Shown piece by piece: positions 1 to 27,824 of a DNA stretch of 64,000 nucleotides. Under the pieces are notes generated by a model, which was given only the letters and a program-made list of their open reading frames with translations, had not been told where the DNA came from and made no database searches. Where the stretch lies: assembly GCA_964342815.1 (NCBI GenBank), contig CAYFHS010000001.1, positions 147,849 to 211,848 on the forward strand, read 5' to 3'. Position numbers and translations under genes: made by a program. Source of the DNA: an uncultured archaeon. GTDB taxonomy: Archaea; Thermoplasmatota; Penumbrarchaeia; JASLWR01. Position 1 is the first letter of the stretch. The number at the start of each line of letters is the position of its first letter.

Positions 1-339
1 TACAACGTCATAATTTGCGAGAACCGCTGCGTTCAGTGTACCGCTGCACATCTCGGTTACCTGTATTCCATTGTTTGTGAGGTGGGTTTTAGGAATCGTC
101 ACGTAGCTGTTTCGGCCGCATGAATTTGTCGCATCCGCTTGATAGATCAGAAATTTAACGTTGCCTCCCCCGCGCTCAACGGAACTTACTGCCCTCCCGG
201 CAGATTTATGATTATCCACGGTAGCTTCTTGAACACCATGGAGCCAACCATTAAGGCTCGGACCCAGCTGGGCAATCAGCATTATGAGCAATATCGATAA
301 TATCAGGCCAAAGGCAAATTTATCTCCCTTTCGCATCAT
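1..339 (-). CDS. N-terminal fragment of a further array paralog (surface protein with GATase-like head), running off the window edge
   Basis: Not in the ORF track. Manual translation gives MMRKGDKFAFGLILSILLIMLIAQLG...VERGGGNVKFLIYQADA...HLTNNGIQVTEMCSGTLNAAVLANYDVV, open to position 1. Signal peptide, Arg-ended linker and a KxLIY...L..YDVV start match the neighbouring heads. Confidence 0.7.
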   Translation of the reverse strand, partial: MMRKGDKFAFGLILSILLIMLIAQLGPSLNGWLHGVQEATVDNHKSAGRAVSSVERGGGNVKFLIYQADATNSCGRNSYVTIPKTHLTNNGIQVTEMCSGTLNAAVLANYDVV

Positions 340-492
340 TTCCTTCCATCTCCAAGTAAAGTCAGGAACGTTTTGACTGACTTGTTGGTAAAGACGAGCT
401 TGCATGGGTCGGCTTTACACAAGGACCTTAAAACAACGTACAACCTGTATTTATAGCTTATCCGAAGATGGTACGAGTAGTTTTCTTCAAGT

Positions 493-3400
493 TTATATGG
501 ATTCAATTACGCCCTGTGTCTGACAGACCGGGCAGGTGACCAGGGACGGTAACTCAGCTATCTCCGCCGTATAGTTATTTCCGCATGAATGACACTGCAT
601 TGTTATCTCGTTTGTCGGGGGAACCGGGCTCCCATCAGGAACCGGCTCTGCGGCAGGGGGTGCCGGTTCAGGGGGTATGAACGTTTCTTCCAGATGAGAA
701 AGATTAGAAAGATATTCATCGAGCTCGGATAAATCATTGGCCTGTGAAAGAACTGCCGGGGGTGCACCGGGCTCTGGAAGCGGTTCATCCCCCGGAAGGA
801 TTGGATCATGTGCCGGTGGAACCTGTGGCTCCCCCTTCATGGGTGACAATTGCTCAGGAGGTGCGGAGAAAATTGTTTCCACGACTCCCGTATCCGGCAA
901 AGCGACAGGCTGAACCGACACATCGGGAGTAGTTATCTGTACCGCTGAAACCGGATTCACCATTGCTTGCTCTCCCGCAGGATCCGGTCCGGGAGGAAGA
1001 GCCATTCTCTCAAGGTTCTGAGGGCCCTGATCGGTTGAGAATGAAGGAAGCGAATAGAGAGCAGGAGCCACAATGTCGGATGCCGGACCTGATTGACCGT
1101 ATTGGGACTGTGGCTGTGGCGGAGCGTACTGAAGACATTGGGGTTGAGGAACCTGATCCGGGACAGCCGTACCGTATTGCCCGATCCCCTGTCCCGGAGG
1201 CAGCATCAAATGTGGGGTAGGGCCTTTTGGCATACCGGCATATGGTGTTTGAAATTGGGGGATGCTCCCGTATCCTTGCTGCAATTGCGGAGCGTACTGA
1301 CCCTGGAGATAGGGATGCTGCATCGGTCCGTACACTTGCTGGCGTACAATAGGTTCAACGGGAAGATTCGTTTCTTTTTCATCCGTTTTCTTTCTTTTCC
1401 TAACTATAAAAAATAGTATTACAATAAAAATTATAAGAAAAATAGTGCCACCAATAATGATGAATAAAAGGGAAGAGTCACCGCTCAATATTCCCAAACT
1501 TTCCTTATCAACGATATCCGGCTCACCGGCGGGGTTCTCGGCGCCGTTAAGAGGATCGGTCCCTTTTTCACGCTCAAGCCCGTCCGAGAAACCGTCCCCG
1601 TCGCTGTCTATCTGATAATCGTCTTTACCTATAACCTCTATCTTTACTTTCTTGCTCTCGTTGTAACCGTGCCCGTCTGAGGCGAACAATGTGATTGTAT
1701 GTTTTCCGGGAACCAGGCGCCCCCTCATGAAAACCTCTGAGCCGATTGAGTGGTTCGCGCTGACATTACTGGACCAGTAATAGCTTAGATTGTCACCGTC
1801 CTCGTCGGAGGATCCAGAGGCATCGAAGATAATTTCGTGGTCGTACCTGAAATATGATCCTTGATGGGGAGTTGAGATTACTGGCTCAGGCTTGGAATTC
1901 ACCCAGACCCGGTATGGTTTTGAGATATTGTAACCCGTAGCCATGATATCATCCGCACGCCACCGTATGTAATTATGGGGACCCCAATCGAACTCCAGTT
2001 CCAATAAGACCTGAGTGGGATTCCCGTTTACCACGTTTCCCGCTTTCTTCCATGGCCCGAAATTTTTTTCGTCGTCCCCCGCCCCTTTTGCAATTGAATA
2101 CTCCACCGTTGACGTGTCCACTCCGCTCCCGTCATCGAAAATCTGAATGAAACATTCAACTTTCTTCTGTGCCGCATAATCGTTCTCATCTGGTGTGAAG
2201 GAGCTAAAATAAACCGGTGAAGTATCTATTTTCAGATTGAATTTATCGGATACGCTAAAAGGATTGCCTACAATATCCGTTCCCCTGAACATGATATAAT
2301 TGTCAAATCCTTCCGTGTAGCTGAACGTAACGGATATCTCAAAACCGTCTTCTCCCGATTCGCCTATATTTTCGGGATCGATGGGCATCCACTGGCCGAA
2401 GTCGGCGGGACCCGACGTTGATATCCTGACTTCAAGGCTGTTTGGGTCGACACCGCTTCCCGTATCACGTACGGTGATCTTTGTGTTTATTGTATTTTCC
2501 GCGTACCATTCTTTCTGCGGGTTTATCTCGCTGTCAAAGCTTACGGGGGTGATATCCACCTTAATGTTTATAGGGGCCGATTCGGAAAATCCGTTTCCCG
2601 ATACATCCTTGGCACGCCATTTTATGTAATTTCCCTCACCTTCCTGGAAGACGTATTTCACAGTTGGAACTATGGTGTTTCCTTCATCCGGCATCATCCG
2701 TGGTATCCAAAGATCGAAGCTCGGTCCTTCTCCGCTTGAGACCGCGTATTCGATGCTAGTGCCGTCAACTCCCGATCCCTGGAAATCGCTTATGTCTATG
2801 GAGCAGTCGATATCAGTATGATTGTGCCATGAGCCGTCCTGGGGAGTATGGTTCGAAAAGACCGGAGGTGATAGGTCAACGAGTATACCGGATTCAGCGG
2901 AATCTCCGATATTTCCCACCTTGTCGATACACCACACATGAATTCCCGCGAATCCCTCTTCCAATTTGTCGATCTTTACCTCGGTTTCATTGGTGAAAGT
3001 CCCATTCATGGTTCCCGAATTATCAATCGCGGAATAATAATATCCAAGCAGCCCCGAGGCGGGGTCCTCCACGGCATCCCAGGTCACGTACATCTCGGCC
3101 TGGTTAGTATTCACCGTCTCCTTGTCCTTGAAACCTCCGGCACGACACTTCAGATCAACCGGATACAGGGGCGGGTCCGCATCGATCTTGACCGGAAAGG
3201 TCAAATTCGTCATGCAAATTCCCAAGCCTGGTATGTTCTCGATAGTGATGAGATATTCCTCTTCAGGATCGGTGATATTTCGGGACGTTATGTTTAGCGT
3301 AATTTCCTCTCGAGAACTCTCGTTGTCCCACCACGTATTTCCGCCAATATCTGAAATCTTAACATCGAAATACTGGTCATCTGGATAAATTCCTGCGGTG

Positions 3401-4737
3401 CCTGCATACCTGACGGTAAGATTTGTCACGGATATTTTTTCCGCTCCTTTGATCCAATTACCCTTTTCGAGTTTCCCCTGTACATTCCCTTTGAACTCCG
3501 GCGTCCCTGCAAGTTCCAGGTCGTTCTCCACTCTGAAGACATAGGGAAAGCGGTCCAGAGAAATCTCCCCGGACCTGGCAGTTGTGTTCACGAAACAATC
3601 GACGAGGTTCTCGTGGGGGAATGTGAAATTGAAGATCACAGAAAAGTTCAACCACCACATATCCACTGAATTATGGGTGACGGTACAGTCGTCAGTTTGA
3701 AGCCAAACATGCCCACCGATATCCTGAAGCTTAAAGAAGTTATTCTCGGTCCAGTTATAACAAAGAGTAGCATTGGTGTTGTTGTAATCCAGGTGAACCT
3801 TTACCTCGGAAACGTCATTCAGTATCTCTCTCGAGGATATGTTCACACTGACGGTATACGGTTTGTATTTGGCATAGCATTCCGGGCTCTCCTCCTCGGC
3901 TCCCCTTATTGCGACATCGTCAGCATCGGGTAGGCTAACTCCAGCTGCCCAGGCAACCGCCTGTTCCATAAGTTGGTCCGGTGCACCGGCGTAATAATCC
4001 GTGAAGCCGTGATTGTAACCCGCACCGCCCATATAGGCCGGTCCCAGATAAACTATTCGCCCCTCGCCGTATTCCGCCACAACGAATTGGGGTCTCCCGT
4101 TGTGGGTTCCCACGATTCTTGCTCCCGGATCGATACCGTTGTTCGGTCCTTCCCCGTTCCCCCCTAAATTAAAGTTGTTCATCCCTGACGTGACGGGATG
4201 CGAATTGTCCGTAATCACGGCGTTTCCCCCTGAATAATAATAGTAACCCCCATTTGCCGATACCGGAACCACCGCATCTATATCCGGACCCGGGTTGGCA
4301 TATACGACGAATCCAGTTGAAACCACTCCCCCACCGTTCCAGACCCAGTTCTTAAGGGCGGCACCGAATAGGTGAAAGTCCCTGGAGTTGCCGCTTCCGG
4401 AACCGCTCTGACCTATCACCACAGCATCGTAGTTTGATAATTTTGCCACGGTGTTGATATCACCCCCCACTACCTGCTGGGCCGTGAAATCGAAATGCGT
4501 ATCGTCGTTTAGTTGGTTTACCACAGCGGGAGCACCGCCGTTGGATGCGGCTGGCTGTTCCACAGCTATTTTTAAACCTCCCCGTGTTCGTTCGTTTATA
4601 CCACTGTCCTTTATGATCTCCACATCTGCTTCTTCGGTGTCTTGAGACCTGTTTACGATACCTGGGTGAAAATGGGTCATGATAATGATTATGGTCAGTA
4701 CAGCAGCCCAGGAAACACTTTTTTCAATACGGTTCAT
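493..4737 (-). CDS. Array paralog 1: single-pass surface protein (GATase-like head, conserved stalk, PKD, TSP3-like Ca motif, TM, Pro-rich tail, zinc ribbon)
   Basis: ORF 493..4794; likely start MNRIEKS at 4737. Head ...NYDAVVIG...KNWVWNGGGVV...GEGRIVYLG...LMEQAVAWA; PKD-like IIFDASGSSDEDGDNLSYYW; DSDGDGFSDGLEREKGTDP; TM then RKRKK; terminal CHSC-x16-CPVC. Confidence 0.85.
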   Translation of the reverse strand: MNRIEKSVSWAAVLTIIIIMTHFHPGIVNRSQDTEEADVEIIKDSGINERTRGGLKIAVEQPAASNGGAPAVVNQLNDDTHFDFTAQQVVGGDINTVAKLSNYDAVVIGQSGSGSGNSRDFHLFGAALKNWVWNGGGVVSTGFVVYANPGPDIDAVVPVSANGGYYYYSGGNAVITDNSHPVTSGMNNFNLGGNGEGPNNGIDPGARIVGTHNGRPQFVVAEYGEGRIVYLGPAYMGGAGYNHGFTDYYAGAPDQLMEQAVAWAAGVSLPDADDVAIRGAEEESPECYAKYKPYTVSVNISSREILNDVSEVKVHLDYNNTNATLCYNWTENNFFKLQDIGGHVWLQTDDCTVTHNSVDMWWLNFSVIFNFTFPHENLVDCFVNTTARSGEISLDRFPYVFRVENDLELAGTPEFKGNVQGKLEKGNWIKGAEKISVTNLTVRYAGTAGIYPDDQYFDVKISDIGGNTWWDNESSREEITLNITSRNITDPEEEYLITIENIPGLGICMTNLTFPVKIDADPPLYPVDLKCRAGGFKDKETVNTNQAEMYVTWDAVEDPASGLLGYYYSAIDNSGTMNGTFTNETEVKIDKLEEGFAGIHVWCIDKVGNIGDSAESGILVDLSPPVFSNHTPQDGSWHNHTDIDCSIDISDFQGSGVDGTSIEYAVSSGEGPSFDLWIPRMMPDEGNTIVPTVKYVFQEGEGNYIKWRAKDVSGNGFSESAPINIKVDITPVSFDSEINPQKEWYAENTINTKITVRDTGSGVDPNSLEVRISTSGPADFGQWMPIDPENIGESGEDGFEISVTFSYTEGFDNYIMFRGTDIVGNPFSVSDKFNLKIDTSPVYFSSFTPDENDYAAQKKVECFIQIFDDGSGVDTSTVEYSIAKGAGDDEKNFGPWKKAGNVVNGNPTQVLLELEFDWGPHNYIRWRADDIMATGYNISKPYRVWVNSKPEPVISTPHQGSYFRYDHEIIFDASGSSDEDGDNLSYYWSSNVSANHSIGSEVFMRGRLVPGKHTITLFASDGHGYNESKKVKIEVIGKDDYQIDSDGDGFSDGLEREKGTDPLNGAENPAGEPDIVDKESLGILSGDSSLLFIIIGGTIFLIIFIVILFFIVRKRKKTDEKETNLPVEPIVRQQVYGPMQHPYLQGQYAPQLQQGYGSIPQFQTPYAGMPKGPTPHLMLPPGQGIGQYGTAVPDQVPQPQCLQYAPPQPQSQYGQSGPASDIVAPALYSLPSFSTDQGPQNLERMALPPGPDPAGEQAMVNPVSAVQITTPDVSVQPVALPDTGVVETIFSAPPEQLSPMKGEPQVPPAHDPILPGDEPLPEPGAPPAVLSQANDLSELDEYLSNLSHLEETFIPPEPAPPAAEPVPDGSPVPPTNEITMQCHSCGNNYTAEIAELPSLVTCPVCQTQGVIESI

Positions 4738-4791
4738 CGAAGCACTCCACAAAAAATGAAGGAATGTTGTCTGTAAAAAACAACGTGCTAA

Positions 4792-4812
4792 CACTATATA
4801 TATATTATCCGA
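4792..4812 (-). promoter_or_regulatory. Putative BRE-TATA promoter of paralog 1
   Basis: Minus strand GGATAATATATATATAGTG about 55 nt upstream of the start; similar motifs precede other paralogs. Confidence 0.5.
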
Positions 4813-4884: not shown

Positions 4885-7800
4885 TCATCCCTGGATCACT
4901 CCCTGCGTCTGGCATACCGGACAGGTGACCAGAGCCGGATATTCTATTATTTCAGCCGTGTAGTTATTGCCGCAAGAATGGCACTGCATCCGCAGGAATC
5001 CCCTTCGGTTATCGCCACCGTTTGGTGGCGGAAGAGAAGGGGAAGCAGTTTCCTGCGTTTCCGAGGATGAAACCAACAGATTCATCTGTTGGTGATTCAT
5101 AGTTATTTGATTCGTCGCCGGAGCCGGACTTTCCACGGGAACCGGCGGTACCACCGGAGGCGCGGACTCCGGTGATTGAGTAATTTTATCCAGATTTGAT
5201 AGATATGAATCGAGCTGTGAAAGATCGGTGGCCTCCGATGGGCTTGCTGGTGGCACAGTGGGCCCTGGCGGTGACGGACTCTGGGGAGTAATTGGTGCAG
5301 TTCCGGGTTCAACCGGGAGTATTTCTCCACTTGGCGTAATGGGATCAGGTGGGGCCGAAAAGGGAGTCTCCATCGCTTCCAAATTCGGCATTAAGGCTGT
5401 TTGAGCGGGCAAACCCTGAGAAGCTACCGGGAAGGAAGTGGAGGGATCGACACTAACCTGGGAGACAGAGGGCGGGGGTCCCGGCGGTAGTGCCATTCTT
5501 TCAAGGTTCTGCATGCCCTGATCGGTGGGGAATGAAGGAAGCGAATATGCTGCGTATGCAGGATCAGCCTGGCCATGGGGAACCAGCGGAGGTGTTTGAC
5601 CAGGCGGGATGGTGCCGAATTGCATCATCCCCGGTCCCGGGGGCAGCATCAGATATTGTCCTTCGGGTCCCTGCATCCCCCTGAAGGGTGCTTGTAATTG
5701 TGTCGGTTCCCCAAATCCCTGATGCCCGGCAGGAATACCCTGGCCTGGAGGATAAGGGGATTCCAAGTACTGCTGCTGCGTCATTGGTGCCTGAATCAGA
5801 GGTGTCGAGTCCAGTTCTGCTTTTTTTCTCTTTTTCCTGACTACAAAAAGGATGATCAAAACCAGCATGATCAGAAGTAAAATGGCCCCAAGAATGATAA
5901 ACAACAGATAAGAATCTCCACCCATAATTCCGCTGCTGTCCTGGATAATAATATCTGGCTCACCGTCCGGGGAATCCGCCCCGTTATTCGGATCGGTACC
6001 TTTTTCTCGCTCCAATCCGTCAGAAAAACCGTCACCGTCGCTATCACGTTCATAGTCTGCTTTTTCTACCACGGTAATCTTCACTTTGTCCGTCTCGTTG
6101 TAACCATGGCCGTCTGAAACGAATACCGTTATGGTGTGTTTTCCAGCGAGTAAATCGGTACTGAAATAAGCTCCGGACCCAATGAACTGGGTGTAACTAT
6201 TATTTGACGACCAGAAAAAGCTTAGATTGTCCCCGTCCTCGTCGCTGGAATCCGATGCATCGAAATCAATTAAACTGTCGTACCTGAAATACGAGCCTTG
6301 TTCGGGGGACGATATTATTATCTCTGGCTTGGAATTCACCCATATCCGGTACTGACTTGACTCATTGTAACCCGTACCCAGCATGTCATCGGCACGCCAC
6401 CGGATGTTATTATCGCCGCCCCATTCGAACTCCACTTCCATAAATATCTGTGTGGGATTACCAGCAACAACATTGACTGCTTTCTTCCAGGGCTTGAAAT
6501 TCTTATTGTCGCCCCCCCCGGTAGAAACGGAATACTCAATTGTTGAGACGTCAACCCCGCTTCCGTCATCGAATATCTGTATGAAACATTCCACATCCCT
6601 GCTATCTGCGTACATGTCCTCGGTGGGTGTGAAGGAGCCATAATAAACCTGCGTAGTGTCGATCTTGAGATTGAATTTATCTGAAAGCGTCATTGGATTA
6701 CCAACCATGTCAGTTCCACGGAACATGATATAGTTGTCCTTGCCCTCTGCGTATGGGAAAGTTACGGTTATTTCGTATTCATTCTCATCGGATTTGTTTA
6801 TATTTTCGGCTTTGATAGGTATCCATTGACCGAAATCATTCGGACCTGACGTGGATATCCGCGCCTGGATGCTCGCCGTGTCCACACCGCTCCCGAAGTC
6901 GCTGACCATGATCTTTGTTTCAATAACTTTTTGAGTGTACCATTCTAACTGCGGTCGTATCTCTCCAGCAAAACTGATCGGGGTGATATCTACCTTGATA
7001 TTAACCGGAGCCGATTCAGAAAAACCGTTTTCCGAAATGTCCTTAGCACGCCATTTGATATAGTTCTCCTCCCCCTCCGGAAATACGTATTTTATATTCG
7101 GGGTCAGTTTGTCTCCGTCTACAGGCACCCACGCAGGTATCCACATATTGAAGCCGTTCACCCCGTTCGCAGAGATCGAATATTCAATGGTGCTTCCGTC
7201 AACCCCGGACCCCTCTCCGTCGTCTATCTCAACCGAGCAGTCGATATCGCTGTGATTGTGCCAGGAGCCGTCCGGGGGCGCAATATTTGAAAATGTAGGT
7301 GGCGTAAGATCCACCAGAATACCTGAAGAAGCGGCTTCACCGATATTTCCCACATTGTCCACACACCATACATGGATGGTGGCATATCCTTCGGGCAGTT
7401 CGTTAACTTCCACCTCTGTAACATTTATGAAAGTCCCGTTATCGGTTCCTGAATTGTCGACGTGTGAATAATAATATCCAAGGAGGCCCGAGTCGGGATC
7501 TTCAACATCGAGCCAGGTGGCGAACATCAGCGGTTGATCCGTATTTTCCGTTTCCTTGTCCTTGAATCCGTCGGCATGGCATACGAGGTTCAATGGGGGA
7601 TGAGGAGGGTCGTTATCCACCTTCAGAGGATAAGTTAAATTCGTTTTGCACGCGCCTGATCCAGGAATGTTCTCGATGGTGATTGAATACCACTCCTGGG
7701 AATCGGTGACGTTCCTCGTTGTGATATTAAGCTGAATTTTATTCCCGCTGCTCTGGTTGCTCCACCACGCGTTTCTTTGCGAATCAGCCACCTTGACATC

Positions 7801-9168
7801 GAAATAGTCATTGTCGGGGTAGATATTCATCGAATCATAATAAACCACCGTTAAATTGGATATTCTTAAGTTCTCGCTCCCTCTTACCCAACCCCCCCGG
7901 TCCAGCTTTCCCTGGTACTGACCGGTGAAATCGGGGGTGCCGACGAAATCCAGGTCCTTCACCACCCTGAACAGATAGGGGAACCGATCCCGATGAAACT
8001 CACCCGTCACCGAGGAAGTGTTCACGAAACAATCAACTGGTTCCCTGTGTGGAAATGTGAAATTGAAACCTACCGTAAAATTGAGCCACCACCTCTTCAC
8101 ACCGTCATTGGTAACCGTGCAATCGTCGAGAAACAGCTGAACGTGACCTTTAACATCCTTGAGTTTGAAGAATTCTTGTCTTGTGAAGTTATAACCCAGC
8201 GTGGCATTTGTTTCGTTGTAATCCAGGTGAACCTTGACTTCAGAAACTTCGTTCAGGTCTTTGGGCGAGGTAACATTGACGGTAAGGCCGTAGGTCTCGT
8301 ACTTGGCATAACAAACGACGTCGTTTCCGCCTCCCCTGCCCTTGACCCTGGTGTTCTCTGCGAATGAAAGCCCACCGTATGGACACATTATTGAGCGGAA
8401 ATCTATGCGAACGGTATACTGTCGGATGAAATTCCTGTTCCTATCGTATACCTTCATTGGCATGCTGGACGAGCCGCCGGCCACCACGTAATAGCGGTCG
8501 CCATCGAAAGCGAAGTTCATACAGGTTGAGCTTATACCACCGTAATTCCAGGTGATGTCATTCGCCCCTATGTTGCCGCCCGTAAAGCGGTTGGTTGACC
8601 ATCCGTACCAGGTATTACCGGAAGCGATCCAAACGGCTCCGTCCGTTACCGAAAAATAATAACTGGAGACCGATCGGGTTATTGATGAACTGGAAACATG
8701 GTTCCCTGTCATGGTCACCTTGTGAATGGTGCTTCCGGACCCGTAATACAGGTAAATTCCATCGGTCCCCACTGCATACCCGGACCCACCATGAGCCAGG
8801 TTATAGGTCGTCTGCTGTCCGTTGGTGGTGGAATAACGGTACAAAGTACTTCCGGTACGAGCATAGACCCACTGGCCGTCGGGAGTCATGCAGGGCATCG
8901 TCTGCGAACCAGGGATGTTCATATTGACAATATTCTGGATATTGCTCCCGTCCTTGTTCAAACGCTTCAGCCAGCCGCTGTTGTAATTGCGCGCGTAGAG
9001 ATAATCGGGACTAAGGGCTGCGCGGGACCCCATATTGTTACTGTCAGGGGATTTTTCCACTTCGGGATTTTCGATTATATTAATTACATCCGCATACTGT
9101 TCCACGAGTATGGAAAATCCGGCAGCAACCATGAAAAGAACCAGTATAACCGTGATTGTTTTCTTCAT
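4885..9168 (-). CDS. Array paralog 2: surface protein with beta-propeller-like head
   Basis: Same stalk, TM and tail as paralog 1. Head is rich in short aromatic beta-strand repeats (TPDGQWVYAR, GTDGIYLYY, AFDGDRYYVV). Confidence 0.85.
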   Translation of the reverse strand: MKKTITVILVLFMVAAGFSILVEQYADVINIIENPEVEKSPDSNNMGSRAALSPDYLYARNYNSGWLKRLNKDGSNIQNIVNMNIPGSQTMPCMTPDGQWVYARTGSTLYRYSTTNGQQTTYNLAHGGSGYAVGTDGIYLYYGSGSTIHKVTMTGNHVSSSSITRSVSSYYFSVTDGAVWIASGNTWYGWSTNRFTGGNIGANDITWNYGGISSTCMNFAFDGDRYYVVAGGSSSMPMKVYDRNRNFIRQYTVRIDFRSIMCPYGGLSFAENTRVKGRGGGNDVVCYAKYETYGLTVNVTSPKDLNEVSEVKVHLDYNETNATLGYNFTRQEFFKLKDVKGHVQLFLDDCTVTNDGVKRWWLNFTVGFNFTFPHREPVDCFVNTSSVTGEFHRDRFPYLFRVVKDLDFVGTPDFTGQYQGKLDRGGWVRGSENLRISNLTVVYYDSMNIYPDNDYFDVKVADSQRNAWWSNQSSGNKIQLNITTRNVTDSQEWYSITIENIPGSGACKTNLTYPLKVDNDPPHPPLNLVCHADGFKDKETENTDQPLMFATWLDVEDPDSGLLGYYYSHVDNSGTDNGTFINVTEVEVNELPEGYATIHVWCVDNVGNIGEAASSGILVDLTPPTFSNIAPPDGSWHNHSDIDCSVEIDDGEGSGVDGSTIEYSISANGVNGFNMWIPAWVPVDGDKLTPNIKYVFPEGEENYIKWRAKDISENGFSESAPVNIKVDITPISFAGEIRPQLEWYTQKVIETKIMVSDFGSGVDTASIQARISTSGPNDFGQWIPIKAENINKSDENEYEITVTFPYAEGKDNYIMFRGTDMVGNPMTLSDKFNLKIDTTQVYYGSFTPTEDMYADSRDVECFIQIFDDGSGVDVSTIEYSVSTGGGDNKNFKPWKKAVNVVAGNPTQIFMEVEFEWGGDNNIRWRADDMLGTGYNESSQYRIWVNSKPEIIISSPEQGSYFRYDSLIDFDASDSSDEDGDNLSFFWSSNNSYTQFIGSGAYFSTDLLAGKHTITVFVSDGHGYNETDKVKITVVEKADYERDSDGDGFSDGLEREKGTDPNNGADSPDGEPDIIIQDSSGIMGGDSYLLFIILGAILLLIMLVLIILFVVRKKRKKAELDSTPLIQAPMTQQQYLESPYPPGQGIPAGHQGFGEPTQLQAPFRGMQGPEGQYLMLPPGPGMMQFGTIPPGQTPPLVPHGQADPAYAAYSLPSFPTDQGMQNLERMALPPGPPPSVSQVSVDPSTSFPVASQGLPAQTALMPNLEAMETPFSAPPDPITPSGEILPVEPGTAPITPQSPSPPGPTVPPASPSEATDLSQLDSYLSNLDKITQSPESAPPVVPPVPVESPAPATNQITMNHQQMNLLVSSSETQETASPSLPPPNGGDNRRGFLRMQCHSCGNNYTAEIIEYPALVTCPVCQTQGVIQG
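4990..5097. repeat. 108-nt in-frame palindromic insertion, copy in paralog 2
   Basis: Absent from paralogs 1, 3 and 4; flanked by ATG on both sides; perfect 10-bp stem ACCAACAGAT/ATCTGTTGGT at 5072-5093. Confidence 0.75.
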
Positions 9169-10241: not shown

Positions 10242-10375
10242 ACTATCGTGATATCTGAAGTAAGTTTTTGAAAAATTCATTTTATTTATTACTCACAATG
10301 GGTGCAGCACAGAATAACGCACTTATTCGGTACTCGCCTCAATGATATAATGGACAAATCCACCGAGAATCACTT

Positions 10376-18987: not shown

Positions 18988-19056
18988 ATTACACACTCAT
19001 TTTTAGGGTATATTCATTAATATCTAAATGTAAAAACGCAAAAGCAATAATATTTA

Positions 19057-19078: not shown

Positions 19079-19086
19079 TAAATAAA

Positions 19087-22000
19087 TTACATAGATTCGA
19101 TCATTCCCTGAGTCTGACAGACCGGGCAGGTGACCAGAGCTGGAAGCTGCACTATCTCGGCTGTATAATTGTTACTGCAAGAGTGACACTGTATCTGCTG
19201 GAATCCACTTCGATTACCGCCACTGTTTGGTGGCGGAAGAGAAGGGGAAGCAGATTCCTGCGTTTCCGAAGATGAAGCCAACAGACCCGTCTGTTGGCGA
19301 TTCATGGTTATCTCATTTGCAGCCTGGGCCGGAGTTTCCATCGGAACGGGAGGCTCCCGGATATCGGATTCCTCTTTTAAACTACCTATTGTGGCGAGAT
19401 AAGCGTCAAGTTCCCCGAGATCACCTGTATTGGCATTCGTAGGATCAATAATGGATGATGGACCTGTGGCTGCTGGGGCCGGAGGTGAAATTAGCTGTTG
19501 GCCGAAAGGAAACTGCTGTTCATCTACACTGGGCGATATGGTTTCAGGTTGTATCGGATTGATATTTGTTTGCGCTTCAGCGTGTATGGGTCCGGGAGGT
19601 AATGCCATCCTGTTGAGATTCTGCGAGCCTTGCTCGGTGGAGAACTGTGGAAGTGAGTAAGTGGTGCTGCCTGCGGCACCCGTACCAAGCTGACCGTATG
19701 GGATCTGCGGTTGTAATTGTAATGTGGGAGTTTGTCCGGGGGCAGCCGTCCCGAATTGCTGGGAGGCCCCCATCCCCGATCCCGAATTCATCATCATGGT
19801 AGGGGTATTCAGTCCTTGCATAGCCATGACCGCCGCTTGGTATTGCGCCATTTCTCCATAGCCCTGCTGCCCGGCTTCAGACATGTATTGACCCTGACCA
19901 TAGGGATGCTGGGATGGGCCGTATTGTGATTGTAGCGGGGGAGACTGGACGCTGGGTTCTTCGTCTTTTTTTCTTTTTCTCACTACAAAGAATATAACCA
20001 AAATCAGGATGATCAACAGTAATAATCCCCCAAGAACTACAAAAAGCAGTGAAGAACCTTCACTCAATATTCCCAATTTCTCCTGGACGACAATATCCGG
20101 CTCACCTTCCGGGGAAACCGCCCCGTTATGCGGGTCGGTACCTTTTTCGCGCTCCAACCCGTCCGAGAATCCGTCCCCGTCGCTGTCCCGCTCATAAGCT
20201 GCTTTAGAACCCACTTCGATTTTAACCTTCGCGCTCTCATTGTAACCATTCCCGTCTGACACGAATACAGTTATTGTATGTTTTCCAGGGGCCAGCACGG
20301 CATATTTAACACTGCCGACCCCCAGGAGCTGGTTGGCGCTGACATTGGATGTCCAGTAATAGGTGAGATTGTCTCCATCCTCGTCGGATGAATCGGAAGC
20401 ATCGAATGTAATTTCGCCGTCATAGCGGTAATACGACCCAGCTTCGGGAGATGAAATTTCTGCATCCGGCTTCGAATTCACCCATACCCTGTAAGGCAGT
20501 GACACATTGTACCCCGTTCCCATGACATCGTTGGCACGCCAACGTATGAAATTATCGGACCCCCATTCGAACTCCAACTCCATTAGAACCTGCGTGGGAT
20601 TCCCCTCTACAACGTTAACTGCCTTCTTCCACGGCCCAAAACTTTCATTGCCGCCGCCCCCTTTGGCGACAGAATATTCGACGGTTTGGGGATCTACCCC
20701 CGATCCGTCGTCCAGTATCTGTATGAAGCATTCCACGGACTTTCTGTCCGCAAAATCATTCTCGTCCGGTGTGAAATCGCCGAAATACACCGGGGAAGTA
20801 TCGATTTTCAGATTGAATTTGTCTGACGAGGTAAAGGGATTTCCCACCATGTCCGTGCCTCTGAACATGATGTAATTATCCTTCCCTTCCGGGTAAGTGA
20901 AAGTGACGGCTATTTCATAACCGTCGTCACCGAATTTAGTTATATTTTCCCGGTCAATTTGCATCCATGTGCTGAAATCATTTGGGCCCGACGTGGATAT
21001 CCTTGTTTCGAAGCTTTGCGGATCCAAGCCGCTTCCGGTATCGCTAACCGTTATCTTTGTTGTTATTGAATGGTGATCATACCAATCCTTCGGGGGTGAT
21101 ATCGCATCGGCAAAAATGACGGGAATCGTGTCGATCTTTATGTTTATGGAAGGCGATTCCGCAAAGCCGTTCCCCGAAACGTCCTTTACCCTCCATTTTA
21201 TGTAATTTTCTTCACTCTCCTCAAAGATGTATTTTACGCTGGCCACCGTCGGTTCGTTCTCTAGAGGCACCCATGCAGGTAGCCAGAAATCAAAACCGTG
21301 TACTCCATCATTGGACACGGAGTATTCTATTGTAGTGACGTCGACTCCCGAACCAGTGCCGTCATATATTTCCACCATGCATTCTATGTCCGTGTGATTG
21401 CGCCATGAACCGTCCAGGGGAGTATGGTTCGAAAAGACCGGCAGCGTAAGGTCCACCAGTATGCCCGAATTTCCTGCCTCTCCAATGTTTCCCACATTAT
21501 CGATGCTCCAAACGTAAATTTCCGCAAATCCTTCACCCAGCTCATCGATCTTTACTTCTGTTTCATTGGTGAAAGTCCCATTTGTGGTTCCCGAATTGTC
21601 CAAATGAGAATAATAATAACCCAATAGACCCGAAGCCGGGTCCTCCACTTCGTCCCAAGTGACGTACATCTCGGCCTGGTTGGTATTCTCCGTCTCTTTG
21701 TCCTTGAAACCCCCGGCCCGACACTTCAGATTAACGGGAAACAGGGGTGCTTCTGCATCGATCTTTACCGGGAAGCTTAGATTTGTCATGCAAATACCGG
21801 AACCGGGGATGTTCTCGATGGTTATGAGATATTCCTCAGCCGGGTCGGTGACCTTTTGCGTATTAATGGAAATTGAAATCCCTTCCACGCTGGATGAATT
21901 GTCCCACCACGTTTTTCCGGTCCTGTCCATGATCCTGACATTGAAGAATTCATCATCCGGGTACCGCATTGGAGACCCTGCATATATCACTGTAATATTG

Positions 22001-23418
22001 CTGACGGTGATTGCCTGATTTCCCTTTACCCATGATCCGGATTCGATTTTACCCTGTTCGTCCCCGAAAAAGAATGGTGTGCCTTTAAACTCGAAATCGT
22101 TCTCGACACGACAAATATGAGGGAATCTCTTCATCCGTGATTTGCCGTTGCTGGCTCTTATCTTGACAAAACAGTCAATCTTCTTCTCATGTGGAAAAGT
22201 AAAATTAAATCTGATGGAGAAATTTACAAACCATTTATCATCACCGTTATTTGAAAAAGCACTGTCTTTGACCAGAAGCTGCACATAGCCGTTTTCGTCC
22301 CCCAATTTGAAGAATTTCCTTTGCGTCCAGTTGAATCCCAGGGTGGCATTTGTTGTATTATAATCGAGCCATACCTCCATTTCAGAGGCATCGTCAAGGG
22401 TTTTGGTGGTGGTGATATTCACGCTGAGATTATATGAGCTGTACTCTGCATAACATACTTTTCCGTCGTCTATATCACCTTTCAATGCCGCAGATTCCAC
22501 GTTCGTGATCCTTACCCCCCCAATTTCGGGATAATGATAAACGTTTCCCTGATTCCAGACGAGAAGACTGTTGTCCTCTGCATTGTAAGAGGTATGGGCG
22601 ATGTATCCTCCGGCACCGAGACTGTTTGAGTACGAGCTACGGGAGGAAGTGCTGGTATCGTATTTGTAATTGAAGGTTGCGCTGTTGTATGAATTTCCCC
22701 AGTACAATACACCGCCGACCATGAATGCCCAGCCCACGTTTCCCTTGTTCCTGCCAGTATTCCAGGTTTTTAAAACGTTCAGATTTTCATCCAGTTGGCT
22801 CAATTGCATGGGTTGTGAGGTCGATGTCGCCCAGCAGACGTAGAGACCGGTCTCGTCACTCATAAGATTGATATCAGTGTAGCCGCCCCAATTGAAATGG
22901 GCCCGGTTGTGAAATCCCGCGTTTGGCAGTGCCCTCGATAGTACTTGAGCCATGTCCGTTGTCCTGCATTTTACCAGTGTGTTGCTGTTGTACTGCGCAT
23001 AGTAGAGATGGTTGTTGTAAATTGTGTGATAGGTTCCTTCGGATTGCCGTGGGAGATTAAATTGTCGAACACCGTTATTATTGATGAAGTTGGCCAGCGA
23101 AGTGTATCGATATACCGTTGACTCCCGATAGCTGTTATGATAGAACACATGTCCGTTCGATTCGTCCACATCTATAAAACCATAAGTGCTGAAACCACCC
23201 CTGATCTGCCCGAAATTATTTGATAATTGTCTCATCTCTTCATCGCTGCGTGTTTTTTTCACGCTGTTTTCCGCGGTCATTTCTCTTCTGACATTTATGG
23301 AAGTTTTCAGGGAGGGCTCCTCAATTGCGTCTGTAAGGTAGCTTTGGAAAGCCGTACTTATCATCACAACAAATATTGGGATGATTATTATCTTAGTCAA
23401 TTTCCGATTCTTTTTCAT
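19087..23418 (-). CDS. Array paralog 5: surface protein with olfactomedin-like head
   Basis: Head contains LPNAGFHNRAHFNWGGYTDINLMSDETGLYV...LNVLKTWNT...AFMVGGVLY...YKYDT...SYNAEDNSLLVWNQG, collinear with the OLF consensus; conserved stalk and tail. Confidence 0.88.
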   Translation of the reverse strand: MKKNRKLTKIIIIPIFVVMISTAFQSYLTDAIEEPSLKTSINVRREMTAENSVKKTRSDEEMRQLSNNFGQIRGGFSTYGFIDVDESNGHVFYHNSYRESTVYRYTSLANFINNNGVRQFNLPRQSEGTYHTIYNNHLYYAQYNSNTLVKCRTTDMAQVLSRALPNAGFHNRAHFNWGGYTDINLMSDETGLYVCWATSTSQPMQLSQLDENLNVLKTWNTGRNKGNVGWAFMVGGVLYWGNSYNSATFNYKYDTSTSSRSSYSNSLGAGGYIAHTSYNAEDNSLLVWNQGNVYHYPEIGGVRITNVESAALKGDIDDGKVCYAEYSSYNLSVNITTTKTLDDASEMEVWLDYNTTNATLGFNWTQRKFFKLGDENGYVQLLVKDSAFSNNGDDKWFVNFSIRFNFTFPHEKKIDCFVKIRASNGKSRMKRFPHICRVENDFEFKGTPFFFGDEQGKIESGSWVKGNQAITVSNITVIYAGSPMRYPDDEFFNVRIMDRTGKTWWDNSSSVEGISISINTQKVTDPAEEYLITIENIPGSGICMTNLSFPVKIDAEAPLFPVNLKCRAGGFKDKETENTNQAEMYVTWDEVEDPASGLLGYYYSHLDNSGTTNGTFTNETEVKIDELGEGFAEIYVWSIDNVGNIGEAGNSGILVDLTLPVFSNHTPLDGSWRNHTDIECMVEIYDGTGSGVDVTTIEYSVSNDGVHGFDFWLPAWVPLENEPTVASVKYIFEESEENYIKWRVKDVSGNGFAESPSINIKIDTIPVIFADAISPPKDWYDHHSITTKITVSDTGSGLDPQSFETRISTSGPNDFSTWMQIDRENITKFGDDGYEIAVTFTYPEGKDNYIMFRGTDMVGNPFTSSDKFNLKIDTSPVYFGDFTPDENDFADRKSVECFIQILDDGSGVDPQTVEYSVAKGGGGNESFGPWKKAVNVVEGNPTQVLMELEFEWGSDNFIRWRANDVMGTGYNVSLPYRVWVNSKPDAEISSPEAGSYYRYDGEITFDASDSSDEDGDNLTYYWTSNVSANQLLGVGSVKYAVLAPGKHTITVFVSDGNGYNESAKVKIEVGSKAAYERDSDGDGFSDGLEREKGTDPHNGAVSPEGEPDIVVQEKLGILSEGSSLLFVVLGGLLLLIILILVIFFVVRKRKKDEEPSVQSPPLQSQYGPSQHPYGQGQYMSEAGQQGYGEMAQYQAAVMAMQGLNTPTMMMNSGSGMGASQQFGTAAPGQTPTLQLQPQIPYGQLGTGAAGSTTYSLPQFSTEQGSQNLNRMALPPGPIHAEAQTNINPIQPETISPSVDEQQFPFGQQLISPPAPAATGPSSIIDPTNANTGDLGELDAYLATIGSLKEESDIREPPVPMETPAQAANEITMNRQQTGLLASSSETQESASPSLPPPNSGGNRSGFQQIQCHSCSNNYTAEIVQLPALVTCPVCQTQGMIESM
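19195..19302. repeat. 108-nt in-frame palindromic insertion, copy in paralog 5
   Basis: Stems GCCAACAGAC/GTCTGTTGGC (19277-19298) and CCGCCAC/GTGGCGG; identical to the paralog 6 copy. Confidence 0.75.
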
Positions 23419-23504: not shown

Positions 23505-23510
23505 AATATC

Positions 23511-26500
23511 TCATATGGATTCGATCATTCCCTGGGTTTGGCAGACCGGGCAGGTTACCAGAGCTGGAAGCTGCACTATCTCGGCTGTATAATTGTTTCC
23601 GCAAGAGTGACACTGCATCTGCTGGAATCCACTTCGATTACCGCCACTGTTTGGTGGCGGAAGAGAAGGGGAAGCAGATTCCTGCGTTTCCGAAGATGAA
23701 GCCAACAGACCCGTCTGTTGGCGATTCATGGTTATCTCGCTTGCTGCTTGGGCCGGTGTCTCCATGGGAACGGGAGGTTTGGGGGGCTCTGAGCCCGGTG
23801 ATTCAGTCATACCGCCCAATGCGGCCAAGTATGCATCCAGTTCTGCCAGGTCGCCGATATTATCTGAGGAGGGCCCGGTTGTCTCCATAGCAGGAGATGC
23901 TGCTGTTTCAGCCACCGTATCTGGCGGCGGAGACGGTAACGGTTCAGCTGGAAATGTCGAATCCACTCTCGTTGAAGATATTGGATCTGGCGGCGTTGGT
24001 AAAGGCGTTCCCGGCGATCCTGCATCCGGCAGGATGGGGGGTTGCAGAGGCATGTCAGGAACAGAAGGTGGATAAGCAATCCCCAAATCCGCTGCAACGG
24101 GTGCTGGAGGTGAGGCGGGGCCTGGAGGAAGCGCCATTCTTTGGAGATCCTGCAGTCCCTGATCGGTTTGGAAGGAAGGAAGTAAATAGCCAGGATCCGC
24201 TGGGATACCCGGGCCAATCCCCGGAGGACCCTGCTGGGATGGAAATGCTTGAAATGCGGGACCACCAGGAACAACGTGGGGCCCGGGAGGCAGCATCAAT
24301 TGCGGCGATTGTATCCCCTGCATTCCAAATCCCGCTCGATGGCCAGGGTCGGGACCTGAATATCCCTGCGAGACAGGAGTCTGGTACTGTCCCTGCTGGT
24401 AAGGGTGAGGACTAGGTCCTGGGTACGTCTGCTGCGTGGGACCCGGAGCGGAGGGGGCGGGTACCTTCTTTTCGGATTTTTTCTTTTTCCTTAAAATGAT
24501 GAAAATGATCAGTATCACTAACACGAGAAGGAAGATACAGGCTAGGATTATGAAAAGTAACGAAGATCCACCGCTCAGTATCCCGCCGGGTTCCGTGATC
24601 ACTATGTCGGGTTCGCCTTCCGGGATTACGGCGCCGTTGTGTGGATCGGTTCCGGACTCCCGTTCCAGACCATCCGAGAAACCATCCTCGTCGCTATCCT
24701 TTTCGTATTCGACCCGGCTGATCACCTCGATTTTTACTTTCTCACTCTCGTTGTATCCGTGGCCATCAGAAACGAATAAACTGATTGTATGTTTTCCCGG
24801 GGCTAATCGAACAATGAACTTGGCATCACGTCCGACAGAGCGGTTCAAACTGACATTGCTAGACCAGTAAAAGCTGAGGTTGTCCCCATCCTCGTCGGAG
24901 GACCCCGAAGCATCAAAGGCAATTTCGTCATCGTAACTGAAATATGACCCTTGAGCTGGTGATGTAATAATCGCTTCAGGTTTTGAATTCACCCATACCC
25001 GATAAGGGATCGATATGTTGTGTCCGGTCCCCATCATATCGTCGGCCCGCCAGCGGATGAAATTGGCGGCCCCCCAGTCGAATTCCAGCTCCATAAGAAC
25101 CTGTGTGGGATTGCCTTCTACCACATTTACTCCCTTGTTCCAGGGCCCAAAATTTTCATTGTCACCCCCGTTCGCAATTGAATATTCCACTGAAGAAGGG
25201 TTCACCCCAGAGCCGTCATCGAATATCTGAATGAAACATTCCACCATCTTGTCGTCCGCATAATCGTTCTCTAAAGGCGTGAAAATCCCGAAATATACTG
25301 GCGAGGTGTCGATTTTCAGATTGAATTTATCAGATAATGTTATGGGGTTGCCAACCAGGTCCGTTCCCCTGAACATGATGAAGTTATCCTTTCCCTCCGC
25401 ATACCTGAATGTGACTGTAAGTTCGTGGCTGCCGCCATCGTTTTCACTGATGTTTTCGGCGTCTATTGACATCCACCGGCCGAAATCATTAGGGCCGGAA
25501 ACAGAAATTCTTGTTTCGATGCTGTCCGGCTTCACTCCACTTCCGATATCGCTAACCAATATCGTTGTTGAAATTTCTGCATAATCATACCATTCCATCT
25601 GAGGCGATATCTCCGCTGCGAAATTGATGGGAGTTGTATCAACCTTCAGGTTAACAGATGACGATTCGACAAATCCATTTCCTGTTATATCCTTTGAACG
25701 CCATTTTATATAATTATCTTCGCCCTCATGAAATATATATTTTGTACTTGGCACCATGGGTTCATTATTCTCGGGTATCCACGCAGGTATCCAGTAATCG
25801 AAACCATGCACTCCGTTATCCGACACTGCATACTCGATGGAGCTGCCGTCGACTCCCGATCCCGCCCCATCAAAGATCTCGATGGAGCAATCTATGTCCG
25901 TCTGATTGTGCCATGAACCATCCATGGGGGTATGGTTCGAAAAAACTGGCGGTGAAAGGTCCACAAGTATGCCGGAGCTTGCGGATTCGCCGATATTCCC
26001 GACCATGTCAATGCACCATACGTAGATCGAGGCAAATCCTTCGTGAAGGTTCTTCAATTCCACCTCGGTGACATTCAGAAAGGTACCGTTGATACTTCCC
26101 GAATTATCTGCTTGTGAATAATAATATCCCTTGAGTCCGGATGCGGGATCCTCTACGGCATCCCAGGTTACGAACATACCGGGCTGATTCGTATGCTCGG
26201 TCTCCTTATCCTTGAAATCATCGGCATGACACTTTAGGTTGACGGGATAGAGAGGAGGGTCCGCATCAATTCGTACGGGGAAGGTCAGATTTGTCATGCA
26301 AATGCCGGTTCCGGGTATATTCTCGATGGTGATATAATATTCTTCTTCCAGGTCGCTAACGTTTCTCGAAGTCAGATTTATTTCGACGCTCTCGTTACTG
26401 CTTTCATTGTCCCACCAAGCTTGCCCCGTTTTATCGGTAATCTTGACATCGAAATAGTCGTCCTTGGGGTAGATATCAACGGCTCCCGCATATCGTACCA

Positions 26501-27824
26501 TAAGATTCGCGACGTTAATATTCTCATTACCCCGGATCCAGTCGTTTTTCTCCAATGCTCCCTGAAATTCACCGGTTAGATCTGGAATACCCACCAGCTC
26601 CATGTCATTCTCAACCTTGAACAGATTGGGGAAGCGGTCGGTTCTTACAATTCCCGTGATAGCAGCGGTGCTAATGAAACAGTCCACCTGGTCTTCGTGG
26701 GGAAAGGTGAAATTGAAAATTACGGAGAAATTGAGCCACCACCTTTCGACACTGTCGGTGGTAACAGTGGAATCGTCAACAAGAAATTGAACGTGTCCGT
26801 CAGTGTCCTGATATTTGTAGAAACGTTTCTGCGTCCAGTTATAGCAAAGAGTAGCATTTGTAGTGTTATAATCAAGGAAAACCTTTACCTCGGAGACCTC
26901 GGTTAGTTCCTTCGCGGATGTGATATTAACACTGAGAGTGTACGGGCGGTGCCGGGCATAGCATATCTTGTTCTCGTCACCATGTCCTAAAATGGCGGCG
27001 TTATCGGCATATGCCGTAAGATCCACTTCCAGCCAACATGCCACAGGCATCCCACCCTGGTTTTGGCCCACAGTGAGAAGAATATCGGAGCCCTGCGGAA
27101 TGGTAGTTATCTCTCCGTGGGACGCGGAACTGCCTGAGAACGAGGGACGGTTCATGTTTCTCACCATGGGGTGATTGACCGCCACCACGAAATTATGGCT
27201 GTTACCATTTCCATTGGTCCTTACACCGAAAGGGCCGGGAACGCCCCTGGACCAACGGCGTTGATAATTCGTACCGAACATGTCGATCAGTATTCCCCCG
27301 TTATTCACATAGTCCTCCATGGTTGAAACCATGGACTCCATCTTGTTCATATGCTGGTTCGGCTGGTATTCGGATATTATGATCATACGAAAAACATTCG
27401 GGTCAAAATCATTCACATTGACCGCACCGGCACTTTTCTGTGTAAATTGTATCCCCCTGGTGTTCATCTCCCGGCGCCAGCCGTCAGACCAACCCTGATG
27501 ATCCCATATTATGAGTATGGGCCCCGAATCCGCATGGGTTGGCCAGAGCCAATCGAATGTATTCATGATGAAGAAACGGGAATGTTGGCCGTTCCCGTAA
27601 CCGTAACTTGCTATGGTCCCAGTGACAAAATAAATTCCCTTATCACCGGCGCTCCTTTTATTTGATGTTATGGCCAATTGCCTCGAAGGGTTCTTTGGCT
27701 TCACCTCTATTTCCTGGTTTTCTTGGAGGGCCATGTAGGAGCACAAGGACAAATATCCGGTTCCCATGATACAGAAAACAACAGCAATCGACACCACCAC
27801 GGGCATTATATTCGATCTTCCCAT
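23511..27824 (-). CDS. Array paralog 6: surface protein with apparently circularly permuted GATase-like head
   Basis: Head begins GDKGIYFVTG...FFIMNTFDWL, then ILIIW...FRMIII...MEDYVNNGGILI, and ends GGMPVACWLEV; conserved stalk and tail. Confidence 0.85.
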   Translation of the reverse strand: MGRSNIMPVVVSIAVVFCIMGTGYLSLCSYMALQENQEIEVKPKNPSRQLAITSNKRSAGDKGIYFVTGTIASYGYGNGQHSRFFIMNTFDWLWPTHADSGPILIIWDHQGWSDGWRREMNTRGIQFTQKSAGAVNVNDFDPNVFRMIIISEYQPNQHMNKMESMVSTMEDYVNNGGILIDMFGTNYQRRWSRGVPGPFGVRTNGNGNSHNFVVAVNHPMVRNMNRPSFSGSSASHGEITTIPQGSDILLTVGQNQGGMPVACWLEVDLTAYADNAAILGHGDENKICYARHRPYTLSVNITSAKELTEVSEVKVFLDYNTTNATLCYNWTQKRFYKYQDTDGHVQFLVDDSTVTTDSVERWWLNFSVIFNFTFPHEDQVDCFISTAAITGIVRTDRFPNLFKVENDMELVGIPDLTGEFQGALEKNDWIRGNENINVANLMVRYAGAVDIYPKDDYFDVKITDKTGQAWWDNESSNESVEINLTSRNVSDLEEEYYITIENIPGTGICMTNLTFPVRIDADPPLYPVNLKCHADDFKDKETEHTNQPGMFVTWDAVEDPASGLKGYYYSQADNSGSINGTFLNVTEVELKNLHEGFASIYVWCIDMVGNIGESASSGILVDLSPPVFSNHTPMDGSWHNQTDIDCSIEIFDGAGSGVDGSSIEYAVSDNGVHGFDYWIPAWIPENNEPMVPSTKYIFHEGEDNYIKWRSKDITGNGFVESSSVNLKVDTTPINFAAEISPQMEWYDYAEISTTILVSDIGSGVKPDSIETRISVSGPNDFGRWMSIDAENISENDGGSHELTVTFRYAEGKDNFIMFRGTDLVGNPITLSDKFNLKIDTSPVYFGIFTPLENDYADDKMVECFIQIFDDGSGVNPSSVEYSIANGGDNENFGPWNKGVNVVEGNPTQVLMELEFDWGAANFIRWRADDMMGTGHNISIPYRVWVNSKPEAIITSPAQGSYFSYDDEIAFDASGSSDEDGDNLSFYWSSNVSLNRSVGRDAKFIVRLAPGKHTISLFVSDGHGYNESEKVKIEVISRVEYEKDSDEDGFSDGLERESGTDPHNGAVIPEGEPDIVITEPGGILSGGSSLLFIILACIFLLVLVILIIFIILRKKKKSEKKVPAPSAPGPTQQTYPGPSPHPYQQGQYQTPVSQGYSGPDPGHRAGFGMQGIQSPQLMLPPGPHVVPGGPAFQAFPSQQGPPGIGPGIPADPGYLLPSFQTDQGLQDLQRMALPPGPASPPAPVAADLGIAYPPSVPDMPLQPPILPDAGSPGTPLPTPPDPISSTRVDSTFPAEPLPSPPPDTVAETAASPAMETTGPSSDNIGDLAELDAYLAALGGMTESPGSEPPKPPVPMETPAQAASEITMNRQQTGLLASSSETQESASPSLPPPNSGGNRSGFQQMQCHSCGNNYTAEIVQLPALVTCPVCQTQGMIESI
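23619..23726. repeat. 108-nt in-frame palindromic insertion, copy in paralog 6
   Basis: Flanked by ATG...ATG; stem GCCAACAGAC/GTCTGTTGGC at 23701-23722. Confidence 0.75.

Follow-up and report, generated by a model that had tools for sequence, protein, structure and literature searches.

Predicted surface proteins with unrelated N-terminal heads on a common stalk form a tandem array in a marine Thermoplasmatota archaeon

We analysed a 64,000-nucleotide stretch of DNA (the window; positions 147849–211848 of contig CAYFHS010000001.1) from an uncultured marine Thermoplasmatota archaeon, whose metagenome-assembled genome (MAG) comprises 4.35 Mb and is 89% complete. The minus strand of window positions 1–27824 holds six complete open reading frames (ORFs) of 1354–1466 amino acids (aa), together with the opening 135 codons of another, the head-to-tail set of paralogs that an earlier sequence-only reading of this DNA had described. 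A search of the genome against itself, combined with an ORF scan, located two further members just upstream, giving eight genes (M1–M8) that span 139518–175672 of the contig (Table 1). Each gene appears to encode a membrane-anchored protein in which one of several unrelated N-terminal heads is joined, at a conserved motif, to a stalk and tail common to all. The intergenic spacers measure 90–155 bp, the sole exception being a 1.2-kb gap between M4 and M5, and the spacers upstream of six genes contain no common promoter-like conserved block. Full-length M2 has the stalk and tail of the array type and a head weakly related to that of M3 (BLAST 1e-5). The likely true start of M3 is the internal methionine at 4737, its database copy being 1414 aa long.

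Table 1. Positions of the array genes and of other features; coordinates are those of the window unless a contig is named.
Feature	Position	Strand	Parts and remarks
M2 N-terminus (edge gene)	1–405	minus	open-ended ORF; full gene at contig 144009–148253
M3 (paralog 1)	493–4794	minus	head 3880–4794; stalk 1471–3879; transmembrane helix 1402–1470; zinc-ribbon tail 493–1401
M4 (paralog 2)	4885–9168	minus	head 8314–9168; stalk 5908–8313; transmembrane helix 5839–5907; tail 4885–5838
M5 (paralog 3)	10376–14776	minus	head 13820–14776; stalk 11414–13819; transmembrane helix 11345–11413; tail 10376–11344
M6 (paralog 4)	14932–18996	minus	head 18133–18996; stalk 15727–18132; transmembrane helix 15658–15726; tail 14932–15657
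M7 (paralog 5)	19087–23418	minus	olfactomedin head 22456–23418; stalk 20050–22455; transmembrane helix 19981–20049; tail 19087–19980
M8 (paralog 6)	23511–27824	minus	head 26964–27824; stalk 24561–26963; transmembrane helix 24492–24560; tail 23511–24491
Ribbon-helix-helix (RHH) ORF and PIN-like ORF	9460–9777 and 9774–10241	plus	overlapping small pair between M4 and M5
1958-aa surface protein	28670–34546	plus	divergently transcribed; distant relative bounding the array
Distant subfamily	contig CAYFHS010000001.1 335169–339524; array on contig C10 49030–78527		shares only distal stalk and zinc-ribbon tail

The eight proteins share one order of parts: a signal peptide (the N-terminus is basic and then hydrophobic in all of them), a head, the stalk, a PKD domain, a TSP3-type calcium loop, a transmembrane helix, a tail rich in proline, glutamine and glycine, and a terminal zinc ribbon. 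A single globular head of about 210–260 aa occupies the N-terminus. In every member the stalk starts at the cysteine of a CY(A/T)xY..Y....N motif, as placed both by a regular expression and by position 1 of a stalk hidden Markov model (HMM), and from this motif to the transmembrane helix it measures 801–804 aa. Mean pairwise nucleotide identity is 0.32–0.37 across the heads, which is chance level, then 0.56–0.60 in the first stalk window and 0.65–0.75 further on. The modular layout read from the letters alone, in which a variable head switches at the CY motif to a stalk of about 800 aa with PKD domain, calcium motif, membrane helix and tail, is borne out by the HMM, this identity profile and matches in Pfam and the PDB.

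The heads fall into several fold families. That of M7 matches Pfam OLF (PF02191) with 145.4 bits against a cut-off of 23.9 (3e-42) over profile positions 26–243 of 246, confirming the olfactomedin assignment of paralog 5, and the M1 head, which lies outside the window, passes Pfam as Laminin_G_3 (1e-20). The β-propellers claimed for M4 and M6 also stand: the M6 head profile matches designed Cake/Bagel and PQQ-type propellers in the PDB (4e-15, with PQQ_2 weak), and the AlphaFold2 model of the M4 head (predicted local distance difference test score, pLDDT, 73) is an all-β propeller of about 20 strands, for which the 50 Foldseek matches listed were all propeller-containing structures (TM-scores 0.34–0.51). 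The GATase-like heads proposed for the edge gene and paralog 1 are a weaker case. A profile of the M2/M3-type head cluster matches PDB 2gk3, a GATase1-like structure, at 6.8e-5, which favours the proposal, and the M3 head stays below the curated cut-offs of ThuA (16.8 bits against 33.4) and GATase1_like (14.9 against 27), with DUF7408 and LBP_M also among its sub-threshold matches. The M2 and M3 heads may therefore be called only weakly GATase1/ThuA-like in fold. Since the M3 head contains no cysteine except that of the CY junction motif, and with it no Cys-His-Glu triad, it is not a catalytic amidotransferase; the likeness is one of fold only.

For the two remaining heads, M5 and M8, which the sequence-only reading had likewise called GATase-like (paralogs 3 and 6), the indications are slighter. 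A BLAST match of 4e-4 to the M3 head is the sole link of the M5 head to the GATase-like group, and Atlas feature searches with M5-type and M8-type heads returned leads only, to DUF4960, DUF2194 and LBP_M. The AlphaFold2 model of the M8 head (pLDDT 43) has alternating helices and strands, and this low-confidence model was left out of the fold search. The module of about 230 aa in the M8 head recurs at 49% identity inside a 2425-aa metagenome protein of β-helix and lectin type (residues 1532–1761) that also contains MAM-like, Reelin-subrepeat, β-helix and legume-lectin domains. There its outermost conserved blocks at either end are those seen in M8, and its internal position in another protein marks it as an autonomous domain. 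An apparent profile similarity between head types arose from the shared linker and CY motif in the alignments, and after trimming no hhalign comparison was significant. Taken together, at least four unrelated folds are predicted to be attached to one scaffold.

The stalk itself can be divided into two N-terminal adapter modules, D1 and D2, which have no relatives elsewhere within the protein, then D3, followed by three repeats of about 105 aa (D4–D6) that are mutually homologous (hhalign 99.4–99.8%). Positions 660–754 of the stalk profile match the PKD domains of KIAA0319L and collagenases in the PDB (1e-7), with Pfam PKD scores of individual sequences mostly below the cut-off. The calcium loop, of the form DxDxDGxxDxxE, scores 27.5–31.9 bits against TSP3_bac (PF18884; cut-off 25) in five paralogs and 24.4 in a sixth. 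Weak matches to titin and OmpL47 were also obtained. Neither D1–D6 nor the tail has a model in Pfam or NCBIfam, where the NCBIfam matches are sub-threshold only. N-glycosylation sequons (NxS/T) number 18–21 per stalk, 0–1 per head and 0–3 per tail; since they concentrate in the stalk, and N-glycosylation is known in archaea, the proteins probably present a glycan-free head on an N-glycosylated stalk.

Beyond the membrane, the transmembrane helix is followed by a stop-transfer segment rich in arginine and lysine and by a tail of 240–330 aa with invariant short motifs. The tail ends in a four-cysteine zinc ribbon, CxxC-x17-CxxC, which is invariant in all eight paralogs while the rest of the tail diverges. 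The same ribbon terminates 24 of the 616 ORFs of at least 600 aa in the genome, and in 22 of these 24 a transmembrane helix lies 170–430 aa upstream of it. Such conservation, in tails far longer than anchoring requires, is what would be expected of transmembrane receptors, in which binding at the head would be relayed through the helix to a tail that recruits a shared effector, as an archaeal parallel to signalling by integrins or adhesion receptors. Scans for Pfam-type domains, however, found no kinase, cyclase, helix-turn-helix, catalytic or other output domain in the tail to bear out the conserved intracellular output that the sequence-only reading had proposed, the genes next to the array include no obvious partner, and a docking or sorting role accounts for the same conservation of motifs and ribbon. 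We consider signalling receptors unlikely. Distinctly doubtful is the broader proposal that the family, together with the at least 24 zinc-ribbon-ending surface proteins per genome, constitutes an archaeal adhesion-receptor system, in which OLF, LamG, NIDO, MAM and FG-GAP modules are coupled through membrane helix and tail to a common cytoplasmic machine; if it were true, the cell would sense or respond to what it binds, and a cytoskeletal or membrane-remodelling partner would be conceivable.

The tails also contain short repeats. About 20 TPP(V/D/A/T) tripeptide-like repeats occur in the cytoplasmic tail of M5 (10376–11344) and in M5 only. Just before the zinc ribbon, M4 (4990–5100), M7 (19195–19305) and M8 (23619–23729) each have an in-frame insertion of a palindromic element of 111 nt (minus strand; predicted fold −46.6 kcal/mol). 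Over these 111 nt M7 and M8 do not differ, and at least seven other sites in the genome have partial copies with 82–97% identity; the element looks like a small dispersed repeat.

Arrays of paralogs invite misassembly, and the sequence-only reading had itself raised an assembly chimera as an alternative. The paralogs are at most 85% identical in any 150-nt window, and the longest exact matches between those in the window are 50 nt in stalks and 122 nt in a tail element. The congeneric MAG ETNP2_MAG_1, whose name refers to the eastern tropical North Pacific, carries an array at the same locus, flanked as here by a gene of 376 aa together with a surface protein of about 1520–1550 aa on one side and by the divergent 1958-aa gene and carboxylase genes on the other. 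Contigs from four further samples, belonging to four studies, are at least 99% identical to 25–30 of 30 bins of a 20-kb stretch, with two single-base differences, and bridge the M5/M6 and M7/M8 junctions and those of the insert between M4 and M5. A chimera is thus unlikely, because the paralogs are too divergent, the congener has an array at the same locus and contigs from other samples span the junctions. No variation of the heads was seen in these four samples, in which coverage was low.

We then compared the evolution of heads and stalks. A database search with the stalk returned 81 proteins, all unnamed or generically named (‘hypothetical protein’); the records that name their source are nearly all from Thermoplasmatota, and one weak partial match names Fermentibacteria. 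The heads of 64 non-redundant collinear members group by sequence into eleven clusters, and orthologs from outside this array exist for all eight of its heads. These ortholog heads are 74–88% identical across lineages, compared with 48–62% for their stalks (OLF, 88% vs 62%; M5 type, 84% vs 58%; M8 type, 74% vs 48%). Against the congener the heads are 79–85% identical, and against a sister genus 69% (M6 type), 68% (M7 type), 52% (M1 type) and 32% (M4 type). For calibration, two housekeeping enzymes of the window show 94% and 82% identity to their congeneric counterparts, and one shows 64% identity to that of a sister genus. On this scale, vertical descent under constraint suffices to account for the heads.

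These values bear directly on the proposal that the heads are replaced often between strains, in a fast-evolving polymorphic system resembling polymorphic toxins or the tips of phage tail fibres. Non-homologous sequence does give way abruptly to homologous sequence at one conserved motif, and the same head modules do occur on other scaffolds, both as such a system would have it. Yet clear orthologs of the heads exist in the congener and in other genera, heads are more conserved than stalks, the contigs of the four further samples agree with this genome almost base for base where they cover it, and no immunity-like partner genes accompany the array. We regard rapid replacement as very improbable, and the likeness to toxins and fibre tips that had been suggested is not supported. 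A related claim, of plug-and-play diversification by head replacement, fares better in part: unrelated heads do sit on one stalk, and the adapter is found behind a dozen or more head families (see below), but the head types are old and vertically inherited.

Trees of the stalk add a second element. Head type, mapped as a label on the stalk tree, needs 26 changes where the minimum is 10, and the stalks of one genome or contig cluster together irrespective of the head they carry. The approximately unbiased (AU) test rejects a single clade both for OLF-bearing stalks (difference in log-likelihood 771, p 2e-44) and for LamG-bearing stalks (760, p 1.5e-61). With stalk and head trees incongruent and no significant profile match between trimmed head types, the heads are not one divergent family evolving in step with the stalk, the alternative that the sequence-only reading had set against itself. 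Trees of successive 100-aa segments of the stalk require 15, 21, 30, 34, 32, 35, 36 and 35 changes of head label, from which the linkage between head and stalk is judged to decay along the stalk.

The comparison with the congener follows the same course. The head and the first 200–300 residues of its stalk have one clear ortholog (0.80–0.88, against 0.52–0.64 for the runner-up), and in mid-stalk the runner-up scores as high as the best match. Among paralogs, identity at four-fold degenerate third positions stands at 0.29, the random level, over stalk residues 1–200 and at 0.34–0.40 beyond, and among orthologs it falls from 0.53 to 0.43–0.44 in mid-stalk. An exact-match scan of a related 14.6-kb metagenome contig from the European Nucleotide Archive (ENA) found two differently headed members (963–4739 and 9265–13329) that share an exact 969-nt mid-stalk tract within stalks otherwise 60–67% identical. 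On that contig the gene between the two is split into ORFs of 687 and 670 aa. We also considered the tail of one gene plus the head of the next as the evolutionary unit, but when the genes are painted against those of the congener, orthology mostly extends over whole genes. Partial homogenisation of the distal stalk among paralogs by gene conversion would explain the incongruence of the trees better than ongoing replacement of heads. The presence of unrelated heads on one homologous stalk and tail implies that heads were exchanged by domain shuffling; this shuffling is, on the comparisons above, ancient, each head type having since been inherited vertically.

The arrays also differ in content. 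The same flanking genes enclose eight members here and five in the congener, in a different order. Read outward from the divergent gene, the order in this genome is M8, M7 (OLF), M6, M5, M4, M3, M2 and M1 (LamG), and in the congener only the types of M8, M5, M2, M1 (LamG) and M7 (OLF) are present. This variation is relevant to a structural role, in which the proteins would coat a cell that lacks a rigid wall, in the manner of an S-layer or glycocalyx, and the heads would provide lattice contacts instead of binding external ligands. Stalks that are sequon-rich and probably glycosylated would suit a coat, as would the dozens of such proteins in the genome, and one of the fold matches, a surface-layer protein of Methanosarcina (PDB 1l0q), is known to combine propeller and PKD domain. 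Variation of copy number and order between congeners would nevertheless be unusual for an essential lattice protein, and eight unrelated heads, each conserved to 74–88% across lineages, point to eight distinct functions. An envelope role is in our estimation improbable.

The family extends well beyond these two arrays. Of 41 genomes related down to the level of the class, 38 contain stalk matches, and a D1–D2 profile matches 588 representative clusters (50% identity) at E ≤1e-3, of which 225 reach 1e-30. Nearly all matches cover the module from end to end, and its start ranges from residue 20 to beyond residue 1200. In 90 of the D1–D2 clusters Pfam recognises the part that precedes the module: SBBP propellers (40), DUF7948 (32) and FG-GAP (26), besides Kelch, NIDO, LamG, MAM, LTD, peptidase M28 and carrageenase-like propellers. 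The Pfam head families that precede the adapter number at least a dozen in all. Within the same genome, an OLF-like head (28% identical to that of M7) and M6-like propellers (30–37%) are borne by a more distant subfamily (Table 1).

We propose that the array encodes a display scaffold with a fixed binding repertoire, shaped by ancient head shuffling and by partial gene conversion of the stalk, and we put the probability of this explanation as a whole at about 0.65. The eight genes would encode paralogous single-pass type I membrane proteins whose stalks hold the heads tens of nanometres from the membrane (a length estimated from the typical size of an immunoglobulin-like domain), so that the cell would have a fixed set of specificities, for binding or perhaps catalysis, directed at particles, polymers or other cells. 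Through the zinc-ribbon tail all members would be linked to one cytoplasmic partner. The comparisons indicate that ancient domain shuffling at the border of D1 placed the heads on the scaffold, that a head and the first 200 or so residues of its stalk have since been inherited vertically under strong constraint, that the remaining stalk is partly homogenised among paralogs by gene conversion, and that members of an array are gained, lost and rearranged between close relatives. The most likely function is adhesion or ligand capture, because lectin-like and propeller heads are combined with a long, probably glycosylated stalk, a calcium loop and a membrane anchor.

Several observations weigh against this proposal. 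Among the sequencing runs listed as containing the stretch, none is recorded as RNA. The head of some relatives is a peptidase, and binding need therefore not be the task of every head; at lax thresholds the M5-type and M8-type heads gave no Pfam match consistent over all members, the PDB profile searches with them being empty. The stalk is probably built of β-sandwich domains, a description that rests on the PKD match, the weak matches to titin and OmpL47 and the repeat structure. The groups submitted to the AU test were chosen after the first tree was known, and trees from 100-aa segments are noisy. As regards conversion, the 969-nt tract comes from a short-read assembly and could be a collapsed repeat, and the window contains no recent conversion tract, the longest exact stalk–stalk match being that of 50 nt.

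Other genes at the locus can be described briefly. Of the small pair that occupies the gap between M4 and M5, the first ORF lies just above the cut-off of RHH_1 (20.7 bits against 20.5) and the second just below that of PIN_9 (24.4 against 26.3); the two look like a toxin–antitoxin pair inserted in the array. The divergent 1958-aa protein has weak stalk-HMM matches at residues 911–1092 and 1122–1332, a Reelin_subrepeat-B domain and a zinc ribbon, and a 1959-aa counterpart borders the array in the congeneric genome too. Further along the window, a 2041-aa protein (38510–44635, minus strand) with right-handed β-helix/NosD repeats and PKD domains is a giant surface protein unrelated to the array stalk.

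Marine Thermoplasmatota are abundant and uncultured, and the locus supplies concrete candidate binding modules, on a common scaffold, for their attachment to particles or partners. It also defines an uncatalogued family of adapter and stalk that lies outside Pfam, the 588 clusters being its present extent at 50% identity, and offers an example of mosaic evolution within one gene, with conserved, vertically inherited tips, a partly homogenised stalk and decaying linkage between them. The D1–D2 module could serve as a handle for harvesting archaeal surface-displayed domains from metagenomes.

Among known systems, the giant RTX/BIg adhesins of bacteria carry ligand-binding modules at the tip of a long immunoglobulin-like extender. 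The array proteins resemble them in having a long stalk, probably of calcium-stabilised β-sandwich domains, that would present exchangeable binding modules far from the cell. They differ in being archaeal, in being anchored by a transmembrane helix with a long cytoplasmic zinc-ribbon tail, and in having a single N-terminal head; no Pfam match to RTX repeats or a type I secretion signal was found in them. The Methanosarcina surface-layer protein, a tandem YVTN β-propeller with PKD domain, shares the combination of propeller and PKD domain on an archaeal surface. Of the structures matched by the M4 head it came second (TM-score about 0.4, 21% identity), but the likeness goes no further than the propeller fold, and 1l0q is without the D1–D6 stalk, the TSP3 loop and the zinc-ribbon tail. 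Archaeal surface proteins of the PGF-CTERM type have their transmembrane segment at the extreme C-terminus, whereas in the array proteins 240–330 residues follow it; the NCBIfam model GG_III-CTERM reached 17 bits in one paralog against a cut-off of 22.

Polymorphic toxins pair a variable C-terminal toxin with an adjacent immunity gene. In the array proteins, by contrast, the variable part is N-terminal and extracellular and the C-terminus is constant, and the 90–155-bp spacers hold no small partner genes. Animal adhesion receptors such as latrophilin (PMC4396693) likewise display OLF, LamG, NIDO or MAM modules on the outer end of a protein that crosses the membrane once or several times, but the array proteins have no G-protein-coupled receptor or GAIN domain, and their stalk and tail are unrelated. 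In the tandem lipoprotein paralog cluster of Staphylococcus aureus (PMC2568036) the evolutionary unit is the 3′ end of one gene with the 5′ end of the next. The two clusters are alike in their tandem paralogs, each with a variable and a conserved part, and in being shaped by recombination in the conserved part; the archaeal array differs in its mostly whole-gene orthology with the congener, the blurring being confined to mid-stalk. Having no RTX repeats, C-terminal sorting signal or toxin–immunity pairing, the family belongs to none of the systems compared, and no paper describing it was found in the literature searched; it brings to a protein family not described there a known theme, that of exchangeable tips on an extender stalk.

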